Below the pieces are notes generated by a model. That model saw nothing but the letters and a program-made list of their open reading frames with translations. It searched no databases and was not told the DNA's origin. The translations under genes and the position numbers were made by a program. 64,000 bases of DNA from an uncultured Erysipelotrichia bacterium (GTDB taxonomy: Bacteria > Bacillota_I > Bacilli_A > CAYWJS01). Below, piece after piece: positions 310 through 59,521 of this stretch. Position 1 is the stretch's first letter. Each line of letters begins with the position of its first letter. The stretch is from the NCBI GenBank assembly GCA_964458855.1, contig CAYWJS010000003.1, forward strand, positions 1,957 to 65,956, written 5' to 3'.

Positions 310-2919
310 ATGGATTCAAATATTCAATTAAAAAATCAATTTGCCTGGACTTCTTTTTATATGGAGTTTGCTGATAAACTGTTGCCATATAAAAATAATC
401 GTTCGCACCTTCTTGAGTTGTTAAAAGACGTTTATAACGATTTAGGATTGCGCTATCCGTTTATAGAAAAGGACGGTATGCTGATTGACGATATTTGCCC
501 GTTTACCGTATTTGGCTGTTTTAATAAAGGGATTTCCAATGAAAATCGTATTGCTTTGATGAAAGGCATTGGCAGTAAACTCGGTGTTAAGACTTCAGTG
601 CCTACAGAATTTGACGGCATTCCGGTACTTAACAACATGAAGGCTTGGTTTTTCGCCGGTAAAAGTGAGCGAAAAGAAGATGACATTCCCAACCTATGGG
701 ACACATTTGAAGCCGGATTAAACTATGCAGACAATCCGTCAGAAGTCTCCAAGTCAGCATTTATAGCCTGTTATGATAAAGTAAGAAAGCAATTTGGAAT
801 TAAGTGGAATTTAACTATGGGACTGTATTGGATACGCCCCTTTTCCTACTTAAACCTTGATGATCGTAACAGAAGTTATCTGACACAAGATAGCTCTCCT
901 TATTATGCAAGTATTACTAAAATTTCTAACTTAAAGCAGCCTCCAAGTGCAAAAACCTATTTAGATCTCATTACTGTATGTAAAGAAATCTTTGCAAAGA
1001 GCGACAGTCCTTATCACAGTTTTCCCGAACTGTCCCACATAGCATGGGCTACAACAACTTCGGGAGCACGGAATAACAATATCACTTCAACCGCTAATAA
1101 AAAAATAGGCTGGATTTTTCAAGGTAATCCTAAATACTATGATGTTATGGGTGCTATTAAGGATCTTGATGTTGTAACATGGAGCGTAAAGCAATACCAA
1201 AACCAGATCAAAAAAGGCGATCGCGCTTATATATGGGTTTCAGGCCCTGAGGGTGGCATTGTTGCTTCAGGAGTTATTCTCTGTGACCCAGAAATCAGGG
1301 AAAATAATGAGCCTGACCCCTATGATCTTTCTGGCGATATAAGTACAGGAGAACGTCTTGTCGTAGATATTGAACTTACCCAAAAAATAACGGATGCTGT
1401 TATTAAGAGAGAAGATTTCTTAGCGGATGAACGCCTAAAAAACGCAAATATTATTTCTTTCCCAAATGTAACAAATTCTAGATTGACTTCCGAGCAGGCC
1501 GATGTTATAGACAGCATTATCAACGGCACCTATATACGTATAGAGCCAAAGAATTCAGATGAAACATCAGCCCCTTTAAGACGATACTGGATTTATGCCC
1601 CCGGCAGCAATTCTTCCAAATGGGAAGAGTTTTACTCTCAAGGAATTATGGGTATTGGATGGGATGAATTAGGCGACCTTAAACAATACCCCAGCAAAGA
1701 TGCCATGAAAGCCAAAATGAAGGAACTGTATGGCGCTGAATACTCATATATTAACTCAGTCCTTGCCACATGGCAGTTTGCTAATGAGATTAAAGTCGGC
1801 GATATTGTTTATGCAAAAAAAGGCATGCATAAAGTAATCGGGCGTGGCATAGTTGAATCCGACTATATTTTTAACGCAGATCGCGATGAGTATAAACATA
1901 TTCGTAAAATCAAATGGACACATAACGGGGAGTGGGAACACCCGGGACAAGCTGTCATGAAAACCCTTACCGACATAACTCCTTATACTGATTATGTACA
2001 AAAACTAGAAGCGCTCTTTATTGATGATGACTCTGTAGATATTGAAGAAAAAGAAATTGTGTATGAGTCCTACACCGAAGATAACTTCCTCAATGAAGTT
2101 TTCATGGATGCCGAACGTTACAATACTTTGGTTAATCTCTTAAAAACCAAGAAAAACATCATCCTGCAAGGAGCGCCCGGCGTTGGTAAAACTTTTGCTG
2201 CCAAAAGACTTGCTTTTTCCATAATGGGGCAAAAAGATACAAGCCGCGTTATGATGGTTCAATTCCATCAAAGTTACAGCTATGAAGACTTTATTATGGG
2301 ATTCCGGCCAACCAAAGACGGATTTGAGCTTACCCCCGGGCCTTTTTACCAGTTCTGCAAAACAGCACAGGATGACGATGAACGGGATTATTTCTTTATC
2401 ATTGACGAAATTAACCGCGGCAATGTAAGCAAAATTTTTGGTGAGTTGATGATGCTTATAGAAAAGGAAAAACGCGGTGAAAAACTACGCCTTCTTTACT
2501 CCAACGAGTTATTTTCTGTTCCCAAAAATCTCTACATTATCGGTATGATGAATACTGCCGACCGCAGCCTTGCCATAATCGATTATGCTTTGAGAAGAAG
2601 ATTCGCTTTCTTTGAACTCGAGCCTGCTTTTGACTCTGAAGGATTTAAAAAAATTATACAGCAAGCAAACAACCCCAAGTTTAATGCCCTGGTTGAGCAA
2701 ATTAAAGCTTTGAATGACTTTATCTGCAAGGATGAATCCCTTGGCAGTGGGTTCAGAATTGGACACAGTTATCTGTGCACAAATAGTGAGGTAACCGACG
2801 AATGGCTGGAATCCGTTATTAAGTATGAATTGTTGCCTCTTTTAAACGAATATTGGTTTGACGAACCATCCAAAATAGAACAGTGGACAAAAAGGCTGAG
2901 TGAGGTTTTATATGATTAG
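310..2919 (+). CDS. mcrB: McrB-like AAA+ GTPase subunit of a type IV (modification-dependent) restriction system, with a long N-terminal extension carrying two PUA-like (EVE/YTH-type) reader domains
   Basis: ORF track 869 aa; Walker A GAPGVGKT (nt ~2170-2193), McrB signature MMNTADRS, RBS GAGGTG before ATG; N-terminal segments with W/GD/G-rich beta-barrel-like pattern. Confidence 0.85.
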   Translation: MDSNIQLKNQFAWTSFYMEFADKLLPYKNNRSHLLELLKDVYNDLGLRYPFIEKDGMLIDDICPFTVFGCFNKGISNENRIALMKGIGSKLGVKTSVPTEFDGIPVLNNMKAWFFAGKSERKEDDIPNLWDTFEAGLNYADNPSEVSKSAFIACYDKVRKQFGIKWNLTMGLYWIRPFSYLNLDDRNRSYLTQDSSPYYASITKISNLKQPPSAKTYLDLITVCKEIFAKSDSPYHSFPELSHIAWATTTSGARNNNITSTANKKIGWIFQGNPKYYDVMGAIKDLDVVTWSVKQYQNQIKKGDRAYIWVSGPEGGIVASGVILCDPEIRENNEPDPYDLSGDISTGERLVVDIELTQKITDAVIKREDFLADERLKNANIISFPNVTNSRLTSEQADVIDSIINGTYIRIEPKNSDETSAPLRRYWIYAPGSNSSKWEEFYSQGIMGIGWDELGDLKQYPSKDAMKAKMKELYGAEYSYINSVLATWQFANEIKVGDIVYAKKGMHKVIGRGIVESDYIFNADRDEYKHIRKIKWTHNGEWEHPGQAVMKTLTDITPYTDYVQKLEALFIDDDSVDIEEKEIVYESYTEDNFLNEVFMDAERYNTLVNLLKTKKNIILQGAPGVGKTFAAKRLAFSIMGQKDTSRVMMVQFHQSYSYEDFIMGFRPTKDGFELTPGPFYQFCKTAQDDDERDYFFIIDEINRGNVSKIFGELMMLIEKEKRGEKLRLLYSNELFSVPKNLYIIGMMNTADRSLAIIDYALRRRFAFFELEPAFDSEGFKKIIQQANNPKFNALVEQIKALNDFICKDESLGSGFRIGHSYLCTNSEVTDEWLESVIKYELLPLLNEYWFDEPSKIEQWTKRLSEVLYD

Positions 2920-3946
2920 AATTCAAAATATATACTATATGCTTGCTTATGCTTTTCATGTCTTAAATGAAGAAGGCTATAAACAAGTAGCAACTGAAGA
3001 TTTCGAATATACTTCTGATTTATTTGCAGCAATTCTTTCCAAAGGTATTGCCAGCCAAATCAAAAGGGGATTAAGTAGGGAGTATATCAGCAAAACAGAA
3101 GCCGTTATTTCACCTACAGGTAAAATCAATGTCTCAGCCTCCATTGTACAGAATTCCATGCTTAAAAAGAAACTGGTCTGTGATTATGATGAGTTTACAG
3201 AAAACAGTTACTTGAATAAAATACTCAAAACCACTGCAATGCTTTTGATACGCTGTCCGGAAGTATCAACGCAGCATAAAAAAGCCTTAAGGAAAACAAT
3301 GCTTTATTTCAGTAATGTTGATGAAATAAATCCGCGCAGAATTCAATGGTCGAGTATCAGATACCATAGGAATAATGCCACCTATAAAATGCTGCTGAAT
3401 ATCTGCTATCTAGTTATCGAAGGTATGCTAATGACCGAGCAGGACGGTTCCCGAAAGTTGGCCCGCTATGTAGACGACCAGCGTATGCCCAGGCTTTATG
3501 AAAAATTTGTGTTGGAATATTATCGTAGGCATTATCCCCAGTTTAATGCTTCATCCACCATTATTGACTGGGATGTCGACGGTGGAGAAATAGAATATTT
3601 ACCTACTATGAAATCAGATATAACTCTTCGATATCGGGGCAAAACACTCATTATAGACACAAAATACTATAAGAAGACCATGCAGATAAACAGCTTGTTC
3701 AACAGCCGAACAATCCATTCTCACAATTTGTATCAGATATTTACTTATGTAAAAAACATGGATTTAGCTCGTTCGGGAAATATAAGCGGCCTTTTGCTTT
3801 ATGCCAAAACTGATGAAGATATTGTACCGGACAACGATTATATTATCGGCGGTAATCGTATTAGCGTTAAAACTTTGGACTTGAATACTGACTTTTCCAA
3901 CATATCAAAACAGTTGAACGCAATAGTAGAAAAGATGTTATTATAA
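2912..3946 (+). CDS. mcrC: McrC-like nuclease subunit (PD-(D/E)xK) of the McrBC system
   Basis: ORF track 2900..3946 starts at GTG; more likely ATG at 2912 with RBS GAGGT, overlapping mcrB stop (ATGATTAG); N-terminal IRIQNIYYMLAYAF typical of McrC; catalytic-like motif IIDTKYYKK. Confidence 0.8.
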   Translation: MIRIQNIYYMLAYAFHVLNEEGYKQVATEDFEYTSDLFAAILSKGIASQIKRGLSREYISKTEAVISPTGKINVSASIVQNSMLKKKLVCDYDEFTENSYLNKILKTTAMLLIRCPEVSTQHKKALRKTMLYFSNVDEINPRRIQWSSIRYHRNNATYKMLLNICYLVIEGMLMTEQDGSRKLARYVDDQRMPRLYEKFVLEYYRRHYPQFNASSTIIDWDVDGGEIEYLPTMKSDITLRYRGKTLIIDTKYYKKTMQINSLFNSRTIHSHNLYQIFTYVKNMDLARSGNISGLLLYAKTDEDIVPDNDYIIGGNRISVKTLDLNTDFSNISKQLNAIVEKMLL

Positions 3947-22515: not shown

Positions 22516-23568
22516 CTACCTTATATAATTTCGTTTTAATCTTTTATCTAAGTTAGTTACCACTTCATAATTAATTGTTCCCGCCTTTTCTGCAATTTCA
22601 TCTACAGTAATATTGGGTCCAATTAATTCAACAGTATCACCTACTAAAACTTTATCATCTACCTCAACCATTAGAAGGTCCATACAAATGCGTCCTACAA
22701 TTCTGTAATGTTTATCGGAAATTACAACTGGTACATCTTCATACCTTCTTAACCAACCATCACCATAACCAATAGGAATAACTGCAATTTTCGTATCTTT
22801 TTTGGCAACATACTTTGGCCCATAACTTACAAATTCGCCTTTTTTTAAGTTTTTAATTTGAACAACATTACTATATAAACTAAGTATTGGTTTTAAATTA
22901 AGATCAAGATTAGGTGCTGGTTTTAGACCATATAAAGCAAGTCCTGGTCGAACTGCATTTGTAAAATCTTCTTTCTGCTTTATTAAAGCAGCTGAAGCAG
23001 AGGTATGAATATATTTAAAATCATAATCAATTTCATTTAAAATTTGAACAAAAAAATCCCTTTGTTTAAAGTAAAGTTCATCATTTGTATCAACAGTTGC
23101 ATAATGCGTGTATATTCCTTCTAAGCATAAGTTTTCATTATTTTTTATAATACTTATTGCTTCCTTTATCTCATCAATACTTTTTAACCCCAATCTATTC
23201 ATTCCAGTGTCAACTTTTAAATGAAGTTTTATTTTTTCTTTTGGAGTTATTTTTTTTAACCAATCAAGAGAAAATATTGTAAGAGTTAAATCATTTTCTA
23301 AAGCAAGTGAAATATCACTTGGATCAATTGGACTTAAAATAAGTATTGGTGTTTTTATATTTGCTTTTCTTAAAATGAGTGCCTCACTTATCCTTGCAAC
23401 AGCAAGATAAGCAACTCTTTCTTTTTCTAAAACTTTGGCAATTTCTACAGCACCATGTCCATATGCATCAGCTTTTACCACAGCAATAATTTTTTTATTA
23501 GTATGTTTTTTTATTTGATTTAAATTATAAATTAGGTTTGTTAAGTTGATAACACAATTTTTGTCCAT
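22516..23568 (-). CDS. alr: Alanine racemase
   Basis: 350 aa; AVVKADAYGHG PLP-lysine motif, GYGDG, GRICMD. Confidence 0.85.
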   Translation of the reverse strand: MDKNCVINLTNLIYNLNQIKKHTNKKIIAVVKADAYGHGAVEIAKVLEKERVAYLAVARISEALILRKANIKTPILILSPIDPSDISLALENDLTLTIFSLDWLKKITPKEKIKLHLKVDTGMNRLGLKSIDEIKEAISIIKNNENLCLEGIYTHYATVDTNDELYFKQRDFFVQILNEIDYDFKYIHTSASAALIKQKEDFTNAVRPGLALYGLKPAPNLDLNLKPILSLYSNVVQIKNLKKGEFVSYGPKYVAKKDTKIAVIPIGYGDGWLRRYEDVPVVISDKHYRIVGRICMDLLMVEVDDKVLVGDTVELIGPNITVDEIAEKAGTINYEVVTNLDKRLKRNYIR

Positions 23569-23624
23569 TTTTATACACCTTCATTTTTTATTTTAACATA
23601 AAAAAATCTAAATAAAAATCTATG

Positions 23625-24059
23625 TTACTTACCTTTATTTGCCAAAGACTCATAAATTTTAAATACTTCCGGTAAATATTTATTTATCATTACAGGACGA
23701 AAAGTTTTTGTTTCTACACAAACAACAGTTGATGTTCCCTCTACTAATAATTCTCCTTTCTCATTAAAAATTTTATGAGCATATGTTGTCCTTACTTTGT
23801 TAAATTCTAAAACTTTTGTTTTTACTTTTACTTTATCCCCAAAACGAGCTGGGCGAAAATATTTTATATTGATTTCCCTTACTGGAAATATTATTCCCCT
23901 TTCTTTTACCTCATTTAAAGTAAAACCTAACTCTTCAAAAAAACTAGTGCGTCCTAAATCAAACCAAATTAAGTAATTTGCATGATACACAACACCCATT
24001 TCATCTGTCTCGTTATATCTTACACTTAACTCAATTTCATTTTCCATCTTTATTATCAC
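23625..24059 (-). CDS. Acyl-CoA thioesterase, hotdog fold (YbgC/4HBT family)
   Basis: 144 aa; N-terminal RYNETDEMGVVYHANYL signature. Confidence 0.7.
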   Translation of the reverse strand: MIIKMENEIELSVRYNETDEMGVVYHANYLIWFDLGRTSFFEELGFTLNEVKERGIIFPVREINIKYFRPARFGDKVKVKTKVLEFNKVRTTYAHKIFNEKGELLVEGTSTVVCVETKTFRPVMINKYLPEVFKIYESLANKGK

Positions 24060-24118
24060 CCTATTTGTATTGTAGCATAAAACATTTTAAGTGTAATAAT
24101 AAAATTGTTGAAAAAATG

Positions 24119-24127
24119 TGCTATAAT
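24119..24127 (+). promoter_or_regulatory. Extended -10 promoter element TGcTATAAT upstream of the thioredoxin-like gene
   Basis: Read directly; about 24 nt upstream of RBS GAAGGAG and ATG at 24151; -35 not clear. Confidence 0.35.
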
Positions 24128-24150
24128 TTTTTTATAGAAGGAGCGTTCTT

Positions 24151-24417
24151 ATGAAAGTTTTAGTATTTGGTGCAGTTTGGTGTCCTGAATGCATTATTAT
24201 GAAACCAATTTTAGAAGAAATCCAAAGTGAAATAAAAAATATTAAGATTGAATATTATGACTGCGATGAACATAAAGAATTAGAAAAAAAATGGAATGTA
24301 AAAAAAGTTCCAACTTATATTTTTCTAAATAAAAATAATGAAGAAGTTGAAAGAAAAACTGGAATATTATCAAAGAAAAAATTTCTTTCTTACATTGAAA
24401 AATATAATAACAATTAA
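24151..24417 (+). CDS. Small cytoplasmic thioredoxin/glutaredoxin-like protein with WCPEC active site
   Basis: 88 aa; CxxC motif in thioredoxin-fold context. Confidence 0.7.
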   Translation: MKVLVFGAVWCPECIIMKPILEEIQSEIKNIKIEYYDCDEHKELEKKWNVKKVPTYIFLNKNNEEVERKTGILSKKKFLSYIEKYNNN

Positions 24418-24428
24418 TGGAGGTTAAC

Positions 24429-25622
24429 ATGAAAAAAATATTAAAAGGATTATTAATGCTACTTATTTTTCTTACAATTTTCTTACCAAATATAGCACTC
24501 GCACAAGAGAAAAATATTACAATTCATGTCTTTGGAACTTATACGTGTTCAAATTGCGAGAATGCAAAAATGTATTTAAATACATTAAAAGATAAATACG
24601 AAAATATTAATATCATTTATTACGAAATAAATGAAAAAGAAAACTCTACATTTTTTAACAAAACCCTTAAGTTTTTCAACCAAAAAACACCAAGAGTTCC
24701 TTTTATTGTAATTGGAAATCAAACACTTACAGGTTTTTCTTTAGGTATTACTGATAAACAAATTGAAACAATTATTATTAACTACCAAATAGGCAAAAAT
24801 GAATATCATGATTATGTTGATGCAATCTTAAAAGATGAAACAGAAAAACTTCCGCCACTTAAAGAAAACATTATTCCAGAAAAAATAAACATTCCTTTTT
24901 TTGGAGATATTACTCTTAAAAATTTATCACTTCCTATAATTACTATCATTTTGGGGGTATTGGATGGATTTAATCCTTGTGCAATGTGGGTGCTTTTATT
25001 TTTAATTAGTACCCTTTTAGGACTCAATGACAAGAAAAAAATTAAGATTTATGGATTTACTTTTATCCTTACCTCGGCAGTTATTTACTATATTTTTATG
25101 AGCGCCTGGTTAAATCTTGCAATTTTTGCTAGTACGTTATTTTGGTTCCGCTTACTAATTGCAATAATTGCTTTTATTGGTGGTAGTATTAATATTTATA
25201 ATGCTTTTAAAGAAGATGATGGTTGTACCGTAATTGATGAAAAAAAGCGAACAAAAATTTTCACTAGAATTAAAAGTTTTGTTCAAGAAAAACAACTTGT
25301 ATTAGCACTACTTGGTATAATTTTTCTTGCCATTTCAGTAAATATAATTGAATTATTTTGCTCAGCAGGATTTCCAGTTATTTATACTCAAATTCTTGCT
25401 ATGAATAATCTTTCACCTATTTTCTATTATTTATACTTAATTTTTTATGTTTTATTCTTTATGCTTGATGATATACTTATTTTCTTGGTTGCAATAAAAA
25501 CTCTTGAGTTAAAAGCCTTTTCAACAAAATATAGTCGTATTACTAAAATTATCGGTGGAATATTAATGATTATAATTGGATTATTGCTTTTAATTAATCC
25601 TAATCTGTTAAGTTTTAGTTAA
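24429..25622 (+). CDS. Fusion of an extracytoplasmic thioredoxin-like domain (CSNC) with a CcdA/DsbD-type transmembrane thiol-disulfide electron relay
   Basis: ORF track starts at 24417; likely start ATG 24429 after RBS GGAGG; signal/TM, CxxC domain, then TM core with GFNPC and LFCSAGFP cysteines. Confidence 0.65.
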   Translation: MKKILKGLLMLLIFLTIFLPNIALAQEKNITIHVFGTYTCSNCENAKMYLNTLKDKYENINIIYYEINEKENSTFFNKTLKFFNQKTPRVPFIVIGNQTLTGFSLGITDKQIETIIINYQIGKNEYHDYVDAILKDETEKLPPLKENIIPEKINIPFFGDITLKNLSLPIITIILGVLDGFNPCAMWVLLFLISTLLGLNDKKKIKIYGFTFILTSAVIYYIFMSAWLNLAIFASTLFWFRLLIAIIAFIGGSINIYNAFKEDDGCTVIDEKKRTKIFTRIKSFVQEKQLVLALLGIIFLAISVNIIELFCSAGFPVIYTQILAMNNLSPIFYYLYLIFYVLFFMLDDILIFLVAIKTLELKAFSTKYSRITKIIGGILMIIIGLLLLINPNLLSFS

Positions 25623-25704
25623 ACTTTACATAATTTGATATCTGTTATTTTAAAAAATTATGTCTTATAATGTGGATAAGAGTATTAAGGGGAGAGGATA
25701 ATCT

Positions 25705-27804
25705 ATGTTGGAAAAAGTAATTAAAAGATCAGGAAGATTACAAACTTTTAATCGCAAAAAGATTGAGATTGCAATATACAAAGCAATTATTAACACAAGA
25801 ACTGATATTAGTATTCAAAAAGCAAAAGAAATGAGTGAACTTGCAACAAATATTGTGATTTTTAAATTAAATATGAAAAATGAACCAATTGTTCACTTAG
25901 AAGAAATTCAAGATGCAGTAGAAGAGACCCTAATGAATCTTGGTATGACTGATGTTGCAAGAAGTTATATTCGATATCGTTTCCAACGCGAACAAATTAG
26001 AAACGATAAAAAGGCAGCAACTACTGTTGAAAAAATGATTAAAAATTATATCAGAGAAGATGATTGGGAAGTTAGGGAAAATTCCAATATAGATTATTCC
26101 TTACAAGGATTAAATAATTATATTGTTACTAATATTACAAGAGAATTCTGGTTAAATTATGTTTTCTCACCAGAGCAAAGAAAAGCCCATGAAGAAGGAG
26201 ATCTTCATATTCATGATTTAGGAATTCTTTCAACTTATTGCTGTGGATGGGATTTAGAAGCATTACTTTTAAAAGGATTTACTGGTGTTAAAAATAAAAT
26301 TCAAAGTAAACCACCAAAACACTTTAAAACTGCTTTAGGACAACTTGTAAACTTTTTTTATACTCTGCAAGGAGAAGCAGCAGGAGCACAAGCTGTATCA
26401 AATTTTGATACCCTTCTTGCACCTTTTATAAGATACGATAATCTTTCATACAAAGAAGTTAAACAAGCAATGCAAGAATTTATTTTTAATCTAAATGTTC
26501 CAACAAGAGTTGGTTTTCAAACACCTTTTGTAAATATTACAATGGATATTACTGTTTCACCTTTATATAAAGACAAACCAATTATTATTGGCGGTGAATA
26601 TAAAGAAGAAAAATATGGTGATTTCCAAAAAGAAATGAACATGATTAACCGTGCTTTCTGTGAAATAATGGTTGAGGGAGATGCAAGTGGAAGAGTATTT
26701 ACCTTCCCAATTCCAACTTATAACATTACCAAAGATTTTGACTGGGATAATGAAGTTGTTGATGACATCATGAAAATGACTAGCAAATATGGTATTCCTT
26801 ATTTTTCAAACTTTGTTAATAGTGATATGAAACCAGAAGATGCAAGAAGTATGTGTTGTCGTCTAAGACTTGATAATAGAGAACTAAGAAAACGTGGTGG
26901 CGGTCTATTTGGTGCCAACCCATTAACAGGAAGTATTGGGGTTGTTACAATTAACTTACCACGCTTAGGTTATCTTTATAAAACAAAAAGTGAATTCAAA
27001 GAAACTTTAAGAATTTTAATGGATATTGCTAAGGGGATTCTTGAAGCAAGAAGAAAATTAATTGAAAAAAATACTCAAACGGGTCTTTATCCTTACAGTG
27101 CTTTCTATTTAAGTGATGTCTACGAAAGATTTGGTGAATACTGGAAAAATCACTTTAATACAATTGGAATTGTAGGAATGAATGAGTGTATTAGGAATTT
27201 TTACAATGATAAAGAAAATATCACTACTCAAAAAGGTCAAAAGTTTGCAAATGATATTTTAGACTTTATGCGTAAGGTTATTACTGAATACCAAAAAGAT
27301 GGTGATCTTTATAACTTAGAGGCAACACCTGCTGAAAGTACAGCTTATCGTCTAGCGAAAAAAGATAAAGAAAAATATCCAGATATTATTACCGCTGGTG
27401 ATAAAGAACCATATTACACAAATAGTAGTCAACTCCCAGTTGGCTATACAGACGATCTTTTTGAAGCCCTTAACTTACAAGATTCACTACAAGCAAAATA
27501 TACTGGAGGGACAGTATTCCATGCTTATCTTGGAGAAAAGATTGATGATTACCTTGTAACAAAAAATATAATAAAAAATATCTTTAGAAATTATACTTTA
27601 CCTTATTTTTCAATTACTCCAACTTTCTCAATTTGTAAAGATCATGGGTATTTAAATGGTGAACAATTTAAATGTCCAGAATGTGGTAGTGAAACTGAGG
27701 TTTGGACAAGGGTTGTAGGATTCTATCGTCCAGTACAAAACTTCAATAAAGGAAAACAAGAAGAATATAAAGATCGCCTAGAATTTGTTGTAGAAACGAA
27801 GTGA
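25705..27804 (+). CDS. nrdD: Anaerobic ribonucleoside-triphosphate reductase (class III RNR)
   Basis: 699 aa; N-terminal ATP-cone, C-terminal CPECG zinc ribbon and glycyl-radical region RVVGFYRP. Confidence 0.9.
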   Translation: MLEKVIKRSGRLQTFNRKKIEIAIYKAIINTRTDISIQKAKEMSELATNIVIFKLNMKNEPIVHLEEIQDAVEETLMNLGMTDVARSYIRYRFQREQIRNDKKAATTVEKMIKNYIREDDWEVRENSNIDYSLQGLNNYIVTNITREFWLNYVFSPEQRKAHEEGDLHIHDLGILSTYCCGWDLEALLLKGFTGVKNKIQSKPPKHFKTALGQLVNFFYTLQGEAAGAQAVSNFDTLLAPFIRYDNLSYKEVKQAMQEFIFNLNVPTRVGFQTPFVNITMDITVSPLYKDKPIIIGGEYKEEKYGDFQKEMNMINRAFCEIMVEGDASGRVFTFPIPTYNITKDFDWDNEVVDDIMKMTSKYGIPYFSNFVNSDMKPEDARSMCCRLRLDNRELRKRGGGLFGANPLTGSIGVVTINLPRLGYLYKTKSEFKETLRILMDIAKGILEARRKLIEKNTQTGLYPYSAFYLSDVYERFGEYWKNHFNTIGIVGMNECIRNFYNDKENITTQKGQKFANDILDFMRKVITEYQKDGDLYNLEATPAESTAYRLAKKDKEKYPDIITAGDKEPYYTNSSQLPVGYTDDLFEALNLQDSLQAKYTGGTVFHAYLGEKIDDYLVTKNIIKNIFRNYTLPYFSITPTFSICKDHGYLNGEQFKCPECGSETEVWTRVVGFYRPVQNFNKGKQEEYKDRLEFVVETK

Positions 27805-28478
27805 TGAAAATGATTTTTGGTTTAACTAAAACATCATTTGTTGATTATCCAGGGGAAGTATCATTTGTTATATTTTTAGGGGGCTGCAATATGCGATGCC
27901 CCTATTGTCACAATAAATCAATTGTTAATAAAGAAAACAGTATCTACGAGTTAAATACTGTTTTAGAAATGATAAAAGAAAGAAAAGGTTTTCTTAATGC
28001 TGTTGTTATTACTGGTGGTGAACCAACTGTTCATGGTGAACAATTAATTGAACTAATAAAAAAAATAAAAGCTTTAGGTTTTAAAGTAAAACTCGATACA
28101 AACGGCACACATCCGAACTTAGTTAATAAAATTATCAGTAATAACTTAATTGATTATATTGCAATGGATATTAAAAATACTTTCTCTAAATATGAACTAA
28201 CAACAAATGTAAAAATCAATATTGAGAAAATAAAAGAATCGATTAAATTAATTGAAAGTAGTAATATCCCTTATGAGTTCAGAATGACAGTGAATAAAAA
28301 TATGCAGTCAGAAGAAGATATTAAAGAAGTGTTTACTTATATTGAAGAACCAGAAAAATTAAAACTCCAAGCATATCGTTATAGTACTGAACAACTAGAG
28401 AATATAGAGTTTGAAACTTATAGTGATGAAGAATTAAATAACTTAAAAGAAGAAGTAATTTCAATAAATCAAAAATAA
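27801..28478 (+). CDS. nrdG: Anaerobic RNR activating protein (radical SAM)
   Basis: 225 aa; CNMRCPYCHN cluster motif; 4-nt overlap with nrdD. Confidence 0.85.
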   Translation: MMKMIFGLTKTSFVDYPGEVSFVIFLGGCNMRCPYCHNKSIVNKENSIYELNTVLEMIKERKGFLNAVVITGGEPTVHGEQLIELIKKIKALGFKVKLDTNGTHPNLVNKIISNNLIDYIAMDIKNTFSKYELTTNVKINIEKIKESIKLIESSNIPYEFRMTVNKNMQSEEDIKEVFTYIEEPEKLKLQAYRYSTEQLENIEFETYSDEELNNLKEEVISINQK

Positions 28479-28505
28479 TAAAGTATTAATATCATTTAAA
28501 ATTAA

Positions 28506-28695
28506 TAATTATGTTATCATGTTTATAGATACTTGTTTTTATTAGGATTACGATAGGAAGTGGATATTTTGCAAAATGGAAAAGGATTTACATTAATCGA
28601 TAATTATGTTATCATGTTTATAGATACTTGTTTTTATTAGGATTACGATAGGAAGTGGATATTTTGCAAAATGGAAAAGGATTTACATTAATCGA
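28506..28695. repeat. Perfect tandem duplication, 2 x 95 bp (28506-28600 and 28601-28695), covering promoter, RBS and the first codons of the downstream pilin-like gene
   Basis: Both copies read base by base and are identical. Confidence 0.9.
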
Positions 28696-29560
28696 ACTTT
28701 TAGCAGTCATTGTCATTATGGGGATAATCCTTGCAATTGCAGTACCTAGTACAATGAGAATAATAGAAAATTCACAACAAAAATCTTTAGCTAAAGTAGC
28801 AAACGGAATAGTTAGAGCCGCAAAATATGAATACCCTCGCGAAATTATTAGAGAACAAGATGCAACAGAAATAATCTTTAATTATGAGGACGGCATAGAG
28901 AGTTCTAATGTTGAAGGAGAAAATTTAAAATACACAGGTAAGAAACCAAAAGATGGGATTGTTAAAATTAGCCCAGAAGGTAAAATTGCTATTGCAATCC
29001 ATGATGGTAGGTATTGTGCAACAAAATCATATTTAGAAAGCGAAGTAACAATAAACAATATCACAAAAGATGAATGCATGAGTTCATTAAGTGAATCAAG
29101 AGAAATTGTTGCCACTAGAATTGAAGAAAAACTGAGCGACGGTTTTTTTATTTTTAATTATATGGCTCAATTTTCTAATAATTTAAATTTAACAGTAGGA
29201 AAAAAATATGAGGTAATATTAAAAACTGATCAAGGTACAATTAAATTAGAAAACATAATTTGCGAGCTAGATGATACATTTAACCAGTTCCCAACATTGC
29301 GTTACACTCCTGGCTATGACGGTGGTCCAGAGGACTTTCATCACATATATGATAAAGGTAAAGAATTTGTAGAAACTACCTTACCACTAATTCAACATAT
29401 ATATGAAACGCATGGACCAGGTTTTTTTGGAGTAAATTTAACAGCATTAGAAACACTTCAAAAATTTTCTGAGAATGGTGAGTCTTGGATACTAGAAATT
29501 GGTGAACTTTCTTCAATTCAAGCACCAAATATCGAAGAAATAACAATTATTGAACATTAA
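28655..29560 (+). CDS. Prepilin-type N-terminal methylation domain protein, large type IV pilin-like protein
   Basis: 301 aa; ORF track starts at GTG 28655; likely start is TTG 28664 after RBS AGGAAG, giving leader MQNGKG|FTLIELLAVIVIMG. Confidence 0.65.
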   Translation: MDILQNGKGFTLIELLAVIVIMGIILAIAVPSTMRIIENSQQKSLAKVANGIVRAAKYEYPREIIREQDATEIIFNYEDGIESSNVEGENLKYTGKKPKDGIVKISPEGKIAIAIHDGRYCATKSYLESEVTINNITKDECMSSLSESREIVATRIEEKLSDGFFIFNYMAQFSNNLNLTVGKKYEVILKTDQGTIKLENIICELDDTFNQFPTLRYTPGYDGGPEDFHHIYDKGKEFVETTLPLIQHIYETHGPGFFGVNLTALETLQKFSENGESWILEIGELSSIQAPNIEEITIIEH

Positions 29561-29561
29561 A

Positions 29562-29591
29562 ATATCCACCTATTAAGGTGGATATTTTTTG
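29562..29591 (+). terminator. Bidirectional hairpin terminator between the pilin-like gene and the convergent ABC transporter gene
   Basis: atatccacc/ggtggatat stem followed by a 6-nt T-run. Confidence 0.55.
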
Positions 29592-29593
29592 TT

Positions 29594-31420
29594 TTAATCT
29601 TCAAATTGGGAATTATATAGTTTTGCATAAAAACCATTCTTTGCCAGCAACTCTTCATGACGGCCTTGCTCAACAATTTTTCCTTCATCAATTACTAAGA
29701 TTAAGTCAGCACTTCTAATTGTTGATAGACGATGGGCAATTACAAATGTAGTTCTTCCCTTCATTAACTCTTCCATCGTTTTTTGAATCAAGACTTCTGT
29801 TCTGGTATCAACATTACTTGTTGCCTCATCTAAAATTAATATTTTTGGATCAGCAAGAATAGCCCTTGCAATCGTTAATAGTTGTTTTTGCCCACTTGAA
29901 ACATTATCTGACTCTTCATTTAACTCCATATTGTAACCGCTAGGTAAAGTTTTGATAAAGTTATGAACAGATGCCGCTTTTGCTGCCTTAATAACTTCTT
30001 CATCTGTTGCTCTTAAATTTCCATAACGAATATTTTCCATGATTGTTCCTGTAAATAGCCACGTATCTTGTAAGACCATTCCAAAAATTTCCCTTTTTGC
30101 TTCATCACTTAAATCATTAACATTATAGCCATCAATTAAGATTGAACCTTCATTAACAGGATAGAATCCCATCAGTAATTTTACAATTGTTGTCTTACCA
30201 GCACCTGTTGGTCCAACAATTGCAACTTTTTCACCTGCTTTTAACTTAATATTTAAACCTTTGATAATTGGTTCTTCTGCTTTATAACCAAAACTAACAT
30301 TTTGAAATTCAACATTACCTTTAATCCCATCTTTAATAATGTTTTCTTTTGCTATTTCCATTTCCTTTTCTTCCAAAAATTCAAATACTCTTTCTGCTGC
30401 TGCTATCATTGATTGAAACATATTCGAACCATTGGCAATTCGCACAATTGGATGAGTAAAACTTCTCATGTATTGAATAAATGATTGAATATTACCTACT
30501 GTAATCGTTCCTTGAATTGCGTAATATCCGCCTAAAATTGCAATAATTGCATACCCTATATTAGCAACAAAGTGCATAATTGGATGCATTAGACCTGATA
30601 AAAATTGACTTTTCCAAGCTGATTGATAAAGAACTTTATTGTCTTTTTCAAAACTATTTATCATTTTCTCTTCAGCATTAAATGCTCGAAGAACTGTATG
30701 TCCCGAAAACATTTCTTCAACTTTTCCATTAACAAATCCTAAGTAGTCTTGTTGGGCTTTAAAATACTTTTGTGATTTTTTAATTACAAATATTGTTAAG
30801 AAGAAAGAAAGCGGAATCATTAATAACGAAATTAAAGTCATTGGAACATTAATTGAAAACATCATGATAACTACTCCAACAATAGTTACAACTGACGTGA
30901 TAAACTGCGTTGCAATTTGATTTAGACTCTGTGTTAGAGTATCAATATCATTTGTTACAATTGTTAGAATTTCCCCATGAGTTTTCTGATCAAAATAACT
31001 CATCGGTAAACGATTTATTTTCTCACTTAAAGCTTTGCGCAGATTAAACGATACTTTCTGTGAAATACCAGTCATAATGTAGCCTTGAATATATGAAAAA
31101 ACTAAACTCAAAATATAAAGTCCAAGGAGTGTAAGAAGAGTTGTTGCAATTTTTGCAAAATTAATTCCCTCTCCTCCTGTGTACTTACTAATTACTCCTT
31201 CAAATAAAAGGGTTGTTGCATTCCCCAATATTTTTGGTCCGATAATTGAGAAGATAGTACTACCAACAGCAAAGATAATTACAACTAATAACCCTACTTT
31301 ATACTGAGAAATGTATTTCATTAATTTTTTAAATGTTCCTTTAAAATCTTTTGGTTTTTCAAAGGAGAATCTCCCACCACCCATTGGTCGCATGGGAGCA
31401 CTACTTTTTTTATTTTTCAT
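29594..31420 (-). CDS. ABC exporter, fused permease/ATPase half-transporter (heterodimeric multidrug-type)
   Basis: 608 aa; six-TM domain, Walker A GPTGAGKTT, signature LSSGQKQ, Walker B ILILDEATS. Confidence 0.85.
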   Translation of the reverse strand: MKNKKSSAPMRPMGGGRFSFEKPKDFKGTFKKLMKYISQYKVGLLVVIIFAVGSTIFSIIGPKILGNATTLLFEGVISKYTGGEGINFAKIATTLLTLLGLYILSLVFSYIQGYIMTGISQKVSFNLRKALSEKINRLPMSYFDQKTHGEILTIVTNDIDTLTQSLNQIATQFITSVVTIVGVVIMMFSINVPMTLISLLMIPLSFFLTIFVIKKSQKYFKAQQDYLGFVNGKVEEMFSGHTVLRAFNAEEKMINSFEKDNKVLYQSAWKSQFLSGLMHPIMHFVANIGYAIIAILGGYYAIQGTITVGNIQSFIQYMRSFTHPIVRIANGSNMFQSMIAAAERVFEFLEEKEMEIAKENIIKDGIKGNVEFQNVSFGYKAEEPIIKGLNIKLKAGEKVAIVGPTGAGKTTIVKLLMGFYPVNEGSILIDGYNVNDLSDEAKREIFGMVLQDTWLFTGTIMENIRYGNLRATDEEVIKAAKAASVHNFIKTLPSGYNMELNEESDNVSSGQKQLLTIARAILADPKILILDEATSNVDTRTEVLIQKTMEELMKGRTTFVIAHRLSTIRSADLILVIDEGKIVEQGRHEELLAKNGFYAKLYNSQFED

Positions 31421-35252: not shown

Positions 35253-35639
35253 TTATGATTTTGGTTTAAATAAAATTGCAACTAAAAAAGCAAAGAAGAT
35301 GGCACTGGTTATTCCTGCTGTTGTAAGGTCAAACATTTTCATAGCAATCCCAAAAAAACCATATTGATCAGTGTGATCTAAGGCACTATGAATCAAGGAG
35401 TGACCAAAACTTGTAATTGGAACAAGGGCTCCTCCACCACCAAACTCAACAATTCTGTCATAAATACCAAAAATATCAAGACCAGCACCTAAAACAACAA
35501 ATAAACTTGTAACATGTCCAGGCGTAAGAAGTGTATTTTCCAAAATTAATTGTCCAATAACACAAGTAATTCCAGCTACTAAAAAAGCATTTATATAATC
35601 CATTATATCGCCTCCAAACTTACTGCATGAGCAATACAA
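35253..35639 (-). CDS. spoVAEB: Stage V sporulation protein AEb (SpoVAC/SpoVAEb family membrane protein)
   Basis: ORF track 128 aa; likely start at internal Met (MDYINAFLVAG...) overlapping spoVAD stop; glycine-rich TM pattern. Confidence 0.75.
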   Translation of the reverse strand: MYCSCSKFGGDIMDYINAFLVAGITCVIGQLILENTLLTPGHVTSLFVVLGAGLDIFGIYDRIVEFGGGGALVPITSFGHSLIHSALDHTDQYGFFGIAMKMFDLTTAGITSAIFFAFLVAILFKPKS

Positions 35640-36610
35640 GGAATAGTTTCTTTTTGTTGAATCATAGTGGGACTAAAGAGAGCCCCTGTTGCAACTAAAA
35701 GAATTCTTTTTAATTTCCCTGTTTCTAATCTATTTTTCAAAAACCCAAAAGTAACTAAAGCAACACAAGCTGAACCACTACCCCCAGAAAATACTTCTTG
35801 GTTTTTCAAATCATAAAGCATTAGTCCACAATCATTATAATTTTTAGAAATATCCAATTTATATTCCTTTTTTAAATAATCAACCAAAACTTTACTTCCA
35901 ATATCACTTAAATCTCCTGTTACAATTAAATCATAATAATCAGGTGTTCTGTTTGTGTCTGTTAAATGTTGATTAATAGTATCTGCTGCAGCAGGTGCCA
36001 TAGCACCTCCTAAATCAAAGGGATTATTCATTCCCATATCAATTACTTTTCCTATTGTTACTGATTCAAGCTTAATTTTTGCTTTTTTCTTAGATAAAAG
36101 AACTGATGCAGCACCTGTTGCAGTAAAGGTTGCTGTCTGTGGTTTTTGTCCTCCATATTCATTAGGATAACGATATTGACGTTCAGCTGTAGAATTGTGG
36201 GATACTGTTGAACAAATTACATTATTTGCATTTTTACTATTAACTAAAATACCTCCAATAATTAAACTTTCCACGATATTTGCACAAGCTGCATAAACCC
36301 CTAGAAAAGGAAACCCAAATTCACGAGCAACATAATTAGAACTTACATTTTGGTTTAATAAATCCCCTGAGACAAAAAGATCAATATCAAATTTTGTAAG
36401 ATTAGTTTTACTTAAAACTTTAATAATACTTTCTTTTAATAATTTTCTTTCAGCAAGTTCATAGTTTTTCTCTTCGCAATATACATCACTAAAAGTTTTA
36501 TCAAAATATTTACCAAGTGGTCCCTCACTCTCCATTGGACCTGCTATAGTTGTAGCTTCATTTATATAAACACCATTTTTAAATGTTATTGTTTGCTCTC
36601 CTTGTTTCAT
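35603..36610 (-). CDS. spoVAD: Stage V sporulation protein AD (thiolase-like fold)
   Basis: 335 aa; position and overall pattern between spoVAC and spoVAEb. Confidence 0.85.
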   Translation of the reverse strand: MKQGEQTITFKNGVYINEATTIAGPMESEGPLGKYFDKTFSDVYCEEKNYELAERKLLKESIIKVLSKTNLTKFDIDLFVSGDLLNQNVSSNYVAREFGFPFLGVYAACANIVESLIIGGILVNSKNANNVICSTVSHNSTAERQYRYPNEYGGQKPQTATFTATGAASVLLSKKKAKIKLESVTIGKVIDMGMNNPFDLGGAMAPAAADTINQHLTDTNRTPDYYDLIVTGDLSDIGSKVLVDYLKKEYKLDISKNYNDCGLMLYDLKNQEVFSGGSGSACVALVTFGFLKNRLETGKLKRILLVATGALFSPTMIQQKETIPCIAHAVSLEAI

Positions 36611-37108: not shown

Positions 37109-37819
37109 TTACACAATTTGTAATCTTTTTCGTAAATCATTTATTACTTTGTTTTCCATTCTTGATACTTTTACTTGTGAAATTCCGAGTCTTTTTGCAA
37201 CCTCAACCTGAGTTTGTTCTAAATTATATCTCATTTTAATTAATAATTTTTCAGTTGGGTCAAGCTTTTCTAATTCTTCAGTCAGCTCTAGTTTTTCAAA
37301 TTCACGTTTTGCACTCTCATCTAAAATTGTATTGTGAAGTGTATTAGTCTCATTATCATATGCTTGATCCATACTTAAAATATATTCTTTTGATTCAAGT
37401 GCATCCAAAATTTCACTCTTTGAAACTCCAAGATAATTAGTTATTTCATTTATAGTTGGAGTTCTCATATATTTTTGAGTAAGAATTTCTGTTGCTTCTT
37501 CTATTTTTTGAGCAATTGCAATAATATTTCTATTATATTTTACAAGTCTTTCATTTCTTAGGTATTGTCTTACTTCACCTAAAATTATAGGAAAAGCATA
37601 GGTTGTAAGTTTTGCTCCATGTGCTTTATCATAATTTTTTACAGCTTTAATAAACCCTATAACAGCAACTTGATACAAATCATCCTCATTATAACAGGTT
37701 CGAAACCTATTAATAATAGAATAAATTAAACCCTCATTACTTTTAATTAGCTCAGCTAAAGCTTCTTTTTCATTATTCTTAGCCCTCTCTACTAATTTAT
37801 CTACATTTTGTTTAGACAT
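37109..37819 (-). CDS. sigF: Sporulation sigma factor (sigma-F by operon position after spoIIAA-spoIIAB)
   Basis: 236 aa; sigma-70 regions 2 and 4; 8-nt overlap with spoIIAB. Confidence 0.8.
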   Translation of the reverse strand: MSKQNVDKLVERAKNNEKEALAELIKSNEGLIYSIINRFRTCYNEDDLYQVAVIGFIKAVKNYDKAHGAKLTTYAFPIILGEVRQYLRNERLVKYNRNIIAIAQKIEEATEILTQKYMRTPTINEITNYLGVSKSEILDALESKEYILSMDQAYDNETNTLHNTILDESAKREFEKLELTEELEKLDPTEKLLIKMRYNLEQTQVEVAKRLGISQVKVSRMENKVINDLRKRLQIV

Positions 37820-58076: not shown

Positions 58077-58656
58077 TTTTAAACTCCTGTAAAACCGGTT
58101 GCAGTTGGCGTCCTTGTAATGCTTCTTCAATCGTTGGAATAATTAAGTCAAAATGCGATGATAAAGATTGTGGTTTAGCTTTAAAGTTGTCTTGCCCAAA
58201 AGGAACAAGATAAATATTTTTTCTATTTAGAAGTTCCATAATATTTACACCATTTGCACCAAGTCCATCATTAGTAGTAAATGCTATAACAACCGGCGAG
58301 TTATTTCTAAGGGTTGCTTTTGCTGCCATAATAACGGCACTATCAGTATGACCATGTAAAAGTTTACTAAGAGTGTTTCCCGTTGCAGGTGCAATCACAA
58401 GAATATCAAGAGGTTCAATAGAACCAAATTTTTCTGCTTCAACTATTGTACTTACTACTTCTTTTTTAGTTATTTCTTCAAGTTTTTTTACAACTTCTAT
58501 CGCTTTTTTAAATCTTGTATCGGTAGTTACTACTCTTTCACTTGCAATTGGTACTATTTCATGACCCAAATCTACTAATTTTTGAATCTCATCATAAACC
58601 TTATCAAAAGAACAATGAGATGCAGTTAGAGCAAATCCAATTTTAGACACTTTCAT
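58069..58656 (-). CDS. dpaB: Dipicolinate synthase subunit B (flavoprotein)
   Basis: ORF track starts at TTG 58680; likely start ATG 58656 after RBS GAGGGGAG; flavoprotein pattern KIGFALTASHCS. Confidence 0.8.
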   Translation of the reverse strand: MKVSKIGFALTASHCSFDKVYDEIQKLVDLGHEIVPIASERVVTTDTRFKKAIEVVKKLEEITKKEVVSTIVEAEKFGSIEPLDILVIAPATGNTLSKLLHGHTDSAVIMAAKATLRNNSPVVIAFTTNDGLGANGVNIMELLNRKNIYLVPFGQDNFKAKPQSLSSHFDLIIPTIEEALQGRQLQPVLQEFKNE

Positions 58657-59521
58657 CACTCCCCTCACTAATAATTTCAAGTATTGCTTCCGCTAAAATT
58701 TTCCCTGCTGTTTTAGGAGCAACAAGTCCAGGTATTCCTAATACTAAATCAGCTTTTAAACCGCGTTTTTTGGCATACTCAAAATCTACTCCTCCTGGTT
58801 TGCTTGAAATATCTAAAATAAATGTATTAACATTTACCTCATCTAAAATATCTCGCGTTATAACAAGAGCTGGTACTGTATTAATAATAATATTTGCATC
58901 AGAAATTTTTGCTTTTACTTTCTCAATATATAGAGGATTCATTTTTAATTCTTTAACGCGAGCATAATTTTTTTTGCTTCTAACTACTACTGTTACATTA
59001 GCACCTAAATTTTTTAAGGTTCTTGCTAAAGTTTCCCCAACACGACCAAACCCAAAAACATAAATATTAGAACCAAAAATTGTGTAATCTGTATTTTCAA
59101 CAAGCATCATAATAACGCCTTCTACTGTTGGAATTGAATTATAAATTGCAACATCATCACGCTCCATTAAAATATAAGCATCACGGTTTGCAAATTCTAA
59201 CATTTCTTCTAATCTTTTGGTTTTAATTCCAGTAAATATTTTTACATTTTCTTTTGTATTACTAAAAAAATTAAGGGGTAATATAAAGTCTTCATTAGAA
59301 AATAAAGTCCTAACTTTTCCTTCATCTGAAACCCCGTTAACTGGTAAAATTATTACATCATAAATATTAATATTTAACTCTTTTAAACTAACTTTTCTTG
59401 CCTCAACAAATGATTGCATAAGTTGATGGAATCCTAAAAGATGAATATTTGCTTTTTTTTCTTTGAAAATTCTAATCATTTCCAGTTGTCTTTGGTCGCC
59501 ACCAACAAATAAAACATTCAT
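58643..59521 (-). CDS. dpaA: Dipicolinate synthase subunit A
   Basis: 292 aa; Rossmann-like GFGRVG motif; immediately upstream of dpaB. Confidence 0.8.
   Translation of the reverse strand: MNVLFVGGDQRQLEMIRIFKEKKANIHLLGFHQLMQSFVEARKVSLKELNINIYDVIILPVNGVSDEGKVRTLFSNEDFILPLNFFSNTKENVKIFTGIKTKRLEEMLEFANRDAYILMERDDVAIYNSIPTVEGVIMMLVENTDYTIFGSNIYVFGFGRVGETLARTLKNLGANVTVVVRSKKNYARVKELKMNPLYIEKVKAKISDANIIINTVPALVITRDILDEVNVNTFILDISSKPGGVDFEYAKKRGLKADLVLGIPGLVAPKTAGKILAEAILEIISEGSDESV

Follow-up and report, generated by a model that had tools for sequence, protein, structure and literature searches.

What do a thioredoxin gene and a membrane protein gene that directly precede the genes of a class III ribonucleotide reductase (RNR) encode, and do the two pairs belong together? 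This question is raised by positions 24151-28478 of a 64,000-nucleotide stretch of DNA from an uncultured Erysipelotrichia bacterium (assembly GCA_964458855.1, contig CAYWJS010000003.1, forward-strand positions 1,957 to 65,956), which was analyzed at its full length and is called the window here. A first-pass annotation had described the first two genes as a complete transmembrane thiol-disulfide relay encoded upstream of nrdDG. In our analysis, 24151-25622—the thioredoxin gene (trx) and the gene of a membrane fusion protein—is, on balance, probably a self-contained two-component transmembrane thiol-disulfide relay and a conserved module independent of nrdDG. What is new here is an unnamed family, a relative by function of the DsbD/CcdA systems; the interest of the locus lies in this family and not in its link to nrdDG.

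The argument begins with the pairing of the two genes. We surveyed the neighborhood of the membrane protein family in 80 loci, taken from species-representative genomes that match the family motifs. In 60 of these loci (55 by tblastn with a stricter threshold), which come from several phyla, the membrane gene is directly preceded by a short trx homologue of the same strand, and the gaps between the two genes are mostly between -26 and +15 nucleotides (nt), often amounting to an overlap. The window follows this pattern. Its two genes are either 11 nt apart or share 1 nt: an ATG at 24417 begins within the stop codon of trx (TAATG), whereas an ATG at 24429 has GGAGG 5 nt upstream. The start of the membrane gene varies by caller, with 397 amino acids (aa) in one case and 401 aa in a member from IMG, and the mature protein is identical. 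That a thioredoxin and a membrane protein with an outward-facing CxxC form a real unit is therefore confirmed, and the pair is an unnamed module of two genes that is widespread and stays together across Patescibacteria and Mollicutes-like Bacilli.

In a 90%-clustered database, 3550 of 8000 scored candidates match the membrane protein family at E<=1e-3; at 50% identity, 3628 clusters reach E<=1e-3, 755 of them E<=1e-30. The family motifs matched more than 600 stretches in species-representative genomes. Members are labeled mostly as Bacilli, Mollicutes, Erysipelotrichaceae, and Izemoplasma, many others are Patescibacteria (Saccharibacteria, Paceibacterota, Microgenomates, and others), and one stems from an Aenigmatarchaeota metagenome-assembled genome (MAG). 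Nothing specific to the family came up in literature searches that covered Patescibacteria/Saccharibacteria and CcdA-glutaredoxin fusions.

The membrane fusion protein consists of a signal peptide, an outer thioredoxin/glutaredoxin-like domain, a linker that contains a β-hairpin, and a domain of six transmembrane (TM) helices (Table 1). At its N-terminus the hydrophobic signal segment ends at ALA/QEK, and such a hydrophobic segment is found in 79 of 81 family members. The loops on one side of the membrane carry 4, 8, and 4 Lys/Arg residues, those on the other side 0. As signal peptide and Lys/Arg-rich loops fall on opposite sides, the CxxC domain is predicted to lie outside the cell, just as the first-pass annotation had supposed, and the overall topology to be N-out/C-out.

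Five cysteines—C40, C43, C184, C266, and C311—are invariant in alignments of 35 and of 81 relatives. The first two form the outer CxxC. Cys184 and Cys311 are placed by AlphaFold models of the full protein (pLDDT confidence score 77) and of the membrane part alone at the breaks of two discontinuous helices, that of TM1 at 180/183 in the full-protein model and 31/34 in the membrane-part model, that of TM4 at 311/314 and 163/165, respectively. Cys266 is located in a cytoplasmic loop that has low pLDDT in both models, and it is not among the two cysteines by which the membrane domain of DsbD/CcdA is described. Further invariant residues inside the TM helices are polar or charged, namely in D-G-F-N-P-C, in N..E-L-x-C, and as D-D in TM5. 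The outer domain of ~95 aa has a minimal thioredoxin/glutaredoxin fold, and its best structural matches are plain thioredoxins. As variations of this architecture, a tandem pair of outer thioredoxin-like domains (e.g., CPHC and CPLC) occurs in P0056, P0068, and P0107 (538-560 aa) as well as in L011 and L015 (529 aa), and a few representatives of 214-295 aa look like the membrane domain alone, or are truncated.

The second component matches the Pfam Thioredoxin model (PF00085) at 7e-15 with 55.3 bits, above the cut-off of 23.5; against the equivalog model TIGR01068 the 55.3 bits stay under the cut-off of 96.8. It bears no signal peptide and is cytoplasmic. Its active site, WCPEC, comprises Cys11 and Cys14, and the cis-Pro context is VPT. 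Since the protein aligns to residues ~25-105 of classical thioredoxins, it lacks the N-terminal β1-α1 unit. Canonical thioredoxins have WCGPC and ~105 aa. The WCPEC motif, the length of 88 aa, the missing β-α unit, and the match to PF00085 but not to TIGR01068 together identify a thioredoxin-family protein that is not the housekeeping TrxA equivalog. A motif census of the 80 loci gives WC[SPNGA][GAS]C for the partner thioredoxins across the family, with WCGPC in none.

How would these parts work together? The 88-aa cytoplasmic thioredoxin would exchange dithiol and disulfide with the cysteines of the membrane domain, presumably Cys184 and Cys311 at the mid-membrane breaks of TM1 and TM4, and the invariant loop residue Cys266 may mediate this exchange. 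Cys184 and Cys311 would in turn exchange with the CxxC of the fused outer domain, which would act on secreted or surface substrates. By analogy with TrxA to CcdA/DsbD to ResA/CcmG/DsbC, and hence with all systems of such an architecture that have been characterized, the default direction would be the export of reductant.

For the membrane core, the first-pass annotation had used the label of a CcdA/DsbD type. This label could not be confirmed, as comparisons of family models, profiles, and folds were all non-significant. The membrane half of the window protein has no match in Pfam or NCBIfam, even at E = 10. Among the 81 relatives, seven show weak DsbD_2 matches (best E = 0.0023) that do not rise above the noise seen with other TM models, one has an SfLAP match at 1.4e-6, and one gives a weak MerT match (0.0061); other TM families score as often, with Trp_oprn_chp matching 20 members. 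Eight members picked by their best scores against the CcdA hidden Markov model (HMM) gave no DsbD match in a Pfam scan, which returned a single DsbB match at chance level (0.063). Searched against the PDB at E<=10, the membrane profile found two sequences only—a GABA-A receptor subunit (0.084) and the T. thermophilus CcdA 5VKV (0.67), neither significant—and Foldseek against the PDB found nothing at E<0.1 and no fold match to 5VKV. With hhalign, the probability was 0.2% against E. coli DsbD-β and at most 2.5% against a CcdA-like protein from an archaeal locus (L013) and the 20-sequence and 120-sequence alignments of its relatives, a comparison whose sensitivity is limited because this CcdA-like set is very uniform (72-100% identity).

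Does this speak against a DsbD-like function? What defines the DsbD superfamily in functional terms is a pair of redox cysteines at mid-membrane, through which a cytoplasmic thioredoxin is connected to an outer thioredoxin-like domain (PMC3322552). In the family described here, conserved cysteines are placed at mid-membrane in TM1 and TM4 (81 sequences, both models), a trx gene is adjacent in the majority of loci given above, and an exported thioredoxin-like domain is fused behind the signal peptide. Judged by its sequence, the fusion protein appears to share the functional anatomy of the DsbD superfamily, with membership in the family unproven. By analogy, its membrane domain may be said to behave like DsbD-β/CcdA, yet it is not a demonstrable member of the DsbD/CcdA family.

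One could nevertheless regard the protein as a divergent CcdA—DsbD superfamily, LysE clan—that became fused to a thioredoxin-like domain, which we consider possible but rather doubtful. The DsbD_2 and SfLAP matches would fit, as we take both models to belong to the same Pfam clan as DsbD, and so would the appearance of 5VKV in the profile search and the six-TM, N-out architecture with cysteines in TM1 and TM4. In three of four hhalign comparisons (E. coli DsbD-β, the archaeal CcdA-like protein, and the 120-sequence alignment), the FNPC cysteine is aligned on the [ST]PC cysteine of the DsbD-type TM1; the fourth (A3 vs A4) aligned a C-terminal segment instead. Also, one near-identical member carries the name "cytochrome c biogenesis protein CcdA/glutaredoxin" in IMG, while it is hypothetical at NCBI. 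However, all of these signals fall short of significance, matches to other TM families are equally frequent, and the eight members with the best CcdA-HMM scores remain without a DsbD match. The motifs agree only in part: the N-P-C of TM1 resembles the [ST]-P-C of E. coli DsbD and of the archaeal protein, whereas TM4 has C-S-A-G-x-P within ELxCSAGxP in place of the [SC]P[CF] of the compared DsbD-type sequences, and the extra invariant loop cysteine and the acidic TM residues come on top of this. The archaeal locus (L013:6929-11074, Aenigmatarchaeota MAG) offers a further observation. Read by eye, the genes behind the family member encode an ArsR-like regulator, a small redox-active-disulfide protein, a CxxC lipoprotein, and a permease, and the same cluster holds the CcdA/DsbD_2-type membrane protein (PF02683 + PF13386). 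Hence, the new family and a bona fide DsbD-family protein coexist side by side.

Compared with characterized systems, the TrxA to CcdA to ResA/StoA/CcmG pathway (CcdA PF02683, 5VKV) is alike in its cytoplasmic thioredoxin, its six-TM, N-out protein whose TM1 and TM4 each bear a mid-membrane cysteine, essential in the known pathway, and its outer thioredoxin-fold CxxC. In contrast to this pathway, the acceptor here forms the N-terminal part of the membrane protein itself, a dedicated, truncated thioredoxin encoded next door is the donor, and the membrane domain bears no significant sequence, profile, or fold similarity to CcdA; its motifs are DGFNPC and ELxCSAGxP, with the extra invariant cytoplasmic cysteine, and the outer CxxC is usually CPHC. 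E. coli DsbD (α-β-γ), ScsB, and the mycobacterial DipZ-type CcdA-thioredoxin fusions likewise combine a membrane cysteine pair and an exported redox domain in one polypeptide that has thioredoxin as its cytoplasmic partner (PMC3322552). DsbD and ScsB, however, have eight TM helices, an immunoglobulin-like α domain, and a C-terminal thioredoxin-like γ domain, whereas six TM helices and one N-terminal thioredoxin/glutaredoxin-like domain are present here. Among Gram-positive surface thiol systems, SdbA-SdbB-CcdA2 of S. gordonii and CcdA-Etrx/SdbB-MsrAB also use a CcdA-type protein that serves thioredoxin-like lipoproteins, in one case linked to an oxidase (PMC7034828). These systems consist of separate genes with true CcdA homologues, and msrAB is not adjacent in the window.

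Several observations weigh against the two-component relay as proposed. In 20 of the 80 family loci, mostly from Patescibacteria, there is no recognizable adjacent trx. A 3+3 internal repeat is not detectable in the membrane domain (hhalign of N-half vs C-half, probability 0.07%), which also argues against a divergent CcdA, and the TM4 cysteine is not preceded by Pro, unlike in E. coli DsbD (SPC). A simple DsbD-like model leaves the fifth invariant cysteine and the Asp, Glu, and Asp-Asp of the TM helices unexplained. The model of the membrane part alone is of only moderate confidence (pLDDT 70).

The direction of the relay deserves separate consideration. The predicted topology and the conserved pairing speak for a connection between cytoplasm and outside; the export of reductant that the first-pass annotation had assumed is one of two possible directions, as the outer domain of the family is DsbA-like. 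Of 80 relatives, 58 have CPHC as its motif; ahead of the cis-Pro, 66 of 81 have Val, among them the window protein (RVPF), and only 3 have Thr. The combination of CPHC and Val-cisPro characterizes DsbA, while the reductive partners ResA, CcmG, DsbC, and DsbG bear other dipeptides and usually Thr-cisPro. Together with the non-WCGPC thioredoxin and a linkage to nifS, these features are the basis for two readings in which the electrons run inward.

The linkage to nifS concerns a NifS-like cysteine desulfurase (Aminotran_5, class-V aminotransferase, Pfam 4e-70), whose gene directly precedes trx on the same strand in 40 of the 80 loci. They comprise nearly all of the Bacilli-type loci that have enough upstream sequence (L003, L005-L010, L014, L075:5553-8104, and ~30 others). 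In Izemoplasma sp. B36, the desulfurase, trx, and membrane genes overlap one another, the first two by 14 nt. The linkage is absent from the Patescibacteria loci and from the window. As proof of a sulfur-relay function it was rejected, being confined to the Bacilli-type lineage.

In the first of these readings, which we judge unlikely, the same relay would be oxidizing: secreted proteins (e.g., pilins) would receive disulfides from a DsbA-like outer domain, electrons would pass inward through the membrane cysteines to the dedicated thioredoxin, and this thioredoxin would be held oxidized by a cytoplasmic sink, so that the system would replace DsbB/VKOR independently of quinones. Patescibacteria and Mollicutes-like Bacilli, the lineages in which the family is concentrated, live in general by fermentation and, to our knowledge, have no respiratory chains. 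The predominance of CPHC and Val-cisPro and a partner thioredoxin that is never the canonical WCGPC would agree with this, as would the pilin-like gene on the same strand past nrdG, whose product has three cysteines (121, 141, and 203). In S. gordonii, the oxidase SdbA is also reported to have a CcdA protein as a redox partner (PMC7034828). Yet, the window protein itself has CSNC and not CPHC, and its minimal outer fold is without the helical insertion of DsbA. Thermodynamically, the transfer from a high-potential outer domain to a thioredoxin would be uphill unless an unusual thioredoxin is coupled to a strong sink. The likeness to DsbA/DsbB and to VKOR-thioredoxin fusions—outer CPHC and Val-cisPro in most members, and a cysteine-bearing membrane part fused to a thioredoxin-like domain—ends at the membrane part, where similarity to DsbB/VKOR does not go beyond the one chance-level DsbB match and no quinone site can be inferred; conversely, the conserved cytoplasmic thioredoxin partner is absent from those systems.

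The second reading goes further and appears quite improbable to us. The module would be a quinone-independent machine for extracellular disulfide formation in fermentative, reduced-genome bacteria—Patescibacteria and RF39/Izemoplasma-type Bacilli—whose thioredoxin would be re-oxidized by a cytoplasmic enzyme that generates disulfides or persulfides. This sink would be the co-operonic NifS-like desulfurase in Bacilli and the adjacent NrdD2-type RNR in the species of the window. If true, deoxyribonucleotide synthesis or sulfur mobilization would serve as the electron sink of extracellular oxidative protein folding.

The same gene neighborhoods could also be read in favor of a membrane domain that transports a thiophilic metal or a sulfur compound, with two thioredoxin-fold proteins that would bind, chaperone, or regulate and would not relay electrons. 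The invariant charged and polar residues within the TM helices (DGFNPC, N..E-L-x-C, and D-D in TM5), the weak MerT match of one member, the desulfurase gene directly before trx in Bacilli-type genomes and overlapping it in Izemoplasma, and the archaeal cluster with ArsR, redox-protein, CcdA-like, and permease genes would suit a transporter. We hold this to be highly improbable, though. Foldseek found nothing significant, the nifS linkage belongs to one lineage and is missing in Patescibacteria and in the window, and a strictly conserved, exported CxxC thioredoxin-fold domain together with a cytoplasmic CxxC thioredoxin is most simply understood as a redox relay.

What, then, of nrdDG, to which the first-pass annotation had tied the relay? 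In none of the 80 family loci does an nrdD lie within 7 kb of the family member. In a reciprocal survey of 80 metagenome loci with nrdD relatives of 54-79% identity, neither trx nor the membrane gene occurs within 5 kb in any locus, whereas nrdG directly follows nrdD in 66 of them. Outside the window, the order trx-membrane-nrdD-nrdG(-pilin) is kept by no contigs other than those of the same species, which stem from four samples; in the next closest homologue (48% identity) the trx-membrane pair is followed by AbiEii. Hence, two independent modules were placed side by side in this lineage, and a functional tie to nrdDG is not supported. That the relay genes precede nrdDG is confined to this species and amounts to a local accident in the order of genes, with no conserved functional link behind it; the association is no general feature and should not be propagated.

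A search for nrdD next to other family members led to two Paceibacterota-type loci of the same layout (L072:8234-11210 and L080), in which a ~750-aa gene and then one for a radical-SAM activase come after the membrane protein gene. In L072, the large gene reads by eye as a pyruvate formate-lyase; hence, the pair there is again a glycyl-radical enzyme with its activase, but not NrdD. A divergent gene for a membrane-anchored DsbA-like protein lies upstream in L072 (5162-5944, by eye).

Within the species of the window, the genes from trx to nrdG are probably co-transcribed. As the first-pass annotation had stated, the four genes are present and co-directional, with all open reading frames on the + strand and thioredoxin, NrdD, and NrdG matched by family models. 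A terminator scan of 23500-29700 detected none between the four genes; the only terminator-like hairpin of this region follows the pilin-like gene. The 82-nt gap between the membrane gene and nrdD shows no stable RNA structure (fold z = 0.42). Its perfect TATAAT makes an internal promoter before nrdD possible. The start of nrdG overlaps the nrdD stop (GTGATGA), and no NrdR-box-like palindromes were found across the whole window. A candidate promoter of the cluster, read from the sequence as an extended -10-like element, is situated in the 91-nt divergent intergenic region upstream of trx; a consensus promoter scan does not list it, since a good -35 is absent.

Could the thioredoxin nevertheless be the reductant of the RNR, as had been suggested? 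The enzyme is well defined: NrdD scores 1064 bits with NF006126 (cut-off 548) and 575 with TIGR02487 (cut-off 326), matches Pfam NRDD at 1e-198 and ATP-cone at 5e-18, and has its glycyl radical at G672 in RVVGFY (669-674), while NrdG reaches 210 bits with TIGR02495 (NrdG2; cut-off 131). Aligned with T. maritima NrdD (4coi), Y178-C179 correspond to Y124-C125, C384-C385 (SMCCR) to C329-C330 in the SCCR motif, and E539 (YNLEATPAE) to the Glu of NIEQVPAE, a position that is Tyr or Leu in the T4, 9d3x, and P. copri enzymes. This Glu probably corresponds to the catalytic one, E438 in N. bacilliformis (Nb) and E495 in T. maritima (Tm). The residues assign the enzyme to the NrdD2 subclass, which is defined by a third active-site Cys and a Glu (PMC4493059, PMC4390871); the T4 enzyme is described there as the formate-using NrdD1 type (PMC4493059), and the N. 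bacilliformis NrdD as using thioredoxin (PMC4493059, PMC4390871, PMC9176816).

The NrdD2 signature makes a thioredoxin reductant chemically reasonable. Comparative support is lacking, as the conserved partner of this thioredoxin is the membrane protein, to which it is often translationally coupled. In our view it is very unlikely that supplying the adjacent RNR with reductant is the main, or a further, physiological role of the 88-aa thioredoxin in this species. The close packing of four genes without a terminator, stable across four samples of the species, and the signature C384-C385 with Glu539, along with the thioredoxin use documented for N. bacilliformis, would favor it. The window NrdD resembles the NrdD2 enzymes of N. 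bacilliformis and of the T. maritima homologue in its third Cys and Glu, and it shares the Tyr-Cys of the T. maritima-type subclass. Against such a role, both reciprocal surveys gave 0/80, so that a dedicated trx is linked to such an nrdD in none of the loci, and we know of no dedicated trx linked to NrdD2-type nrdD genes. Furthermore, according to PMC4493059, the T. maritima NrdD was unable to use E. coli thioredoxin, which makes the partner specificity of an NrdD unpredictable.

The features discussed so far belong to a + strand cluster, 24151-29560, the sole one inside a long run of - strand genes, and the GC skew flips accordingly. Its five genes are, in order, trx, the membrane protein gene, nrdD, nrdG, and a prepilin-like gene (Table 1).

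Table 1. Positions of the features of the + strand cluster and of neighboring elements in the window.
Feature	Position	Strand	Remarks
Hotdog-fold thioesterase gene	23625-24059	-	divergent neighbor of trx
Candidate promoter, TGcTATAAT	24119..24127	+	extended -10-like element, putative
trx	24151-24417	+	88 aa, WCPEC, MKVLVFGAVWCPEC...
Membrane fusion gene	24417 or 24429-25622	+	401 or 397 aa
Fusion protein	24429..25622	+	signal peptide aa 1-25; outer thioredoxin/glutaredoxin-like domain aa ~28-121; six-TM domain aa ~165-397
Outer CxxC codons, C40-S-N-C43	24546..24557	+	both Cys invariant; family consensus CPHC
Cys184, invariant DGFNPC motif	24978..24980	+	at break of discontinuous TM1
Cys266, DDGC, Lys/Arg-rich cytoplasmic loop TM3-TM4	25224..25226	+	invariant; loop with 8 Lys/Arg
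Cys311, invariant E-L-x-C-S-A-G-x-P motif	25359..25361	+	at break of discontinuous TM4
Gap between membrane gene and nrdD	25623..25704	+	82 nt; TATAAT 25666-25671 with poor -35; nrdD ribosome-binding site (GGGGAGAGG)
nrdD	25705-27804	+	699 aa
nrdG	27801/27804-28478	+	radical-SAM activase of NrdD
95-bp tandem duplication	28506-28695		just downstream of nrdG
Promoter-like site in duplication	28587-28615
Prepilin-like gene	28655-29560	+	176 nt downstream of nrdG
Terminator-like hairpin	29559-29588		after the pilin-like gene

The perfect 95-bp tandem duplication behind nrdG (95/95 identical) copies the ribosome-binding site, the GTG start, and the first ~13 codons of the pilin-like gene (MDILQNGKGFTLIE, prepilin methylation motif) as well as a promoter-like site. 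A same-species contig (L163) lacks the extra copy, as judged from its nrdG-pilin gap of 81 nt compared with 176 nt in the window. On the other side of the cluster, the best NCBIfam hit of the hotdog-fold thioesterase is the menaquinone-pathway hydrolase MenI with 144 bits, below the cut-off of 225, and only the generic YbgC/FadM model is passed; there is no sign of a relation to the relay.

Elsewhere in the window, the first 4 kb have a GC content of 0.38 compared with ~0.29 for the rest, and 310-3946 encodes a McrBC-type restriction pair, an 869-aa protein with EVE domain and AAA_5 and a 348-aa McrC (Pfam 3e-35). Sporulation genes (35603-36610, 37109-37819, and 58643-59521) code for SpoVAD (2e-141), a sigma-70-family sigma factor, and dipicolinate synthase DpaA, and a small open reading frame beside the sigma factor looks by eye like an anti-sigma factor. 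Near-identical MAG proteins (HHX93947.1 and HHX93948.1) bear the NCBI label "Tenericutes/Mycoplasmatota bacterium," which looks doubtful because of these sporulation genes.

For the annotation of genomes, the family has a direct consequence: its genes now bear the names "hypothetical protein" or "thioredoxin family protein," and its motifs could serve to make a family model. If the proposed relay is true, its core would be a membrane domain that escapes the family libraries in current use. The family is concentrated in Patescibacteria and Mollicutes-like Bacilli, lineages about whose envelope redox biology next to nothing is known. With the DsbA-like signature of its outer domain, it offers a test of a long-standing question, namely in what way organisms that lack quinones or DsbB/VKOR form or handle the disulfides of pilins and other surface proteins.

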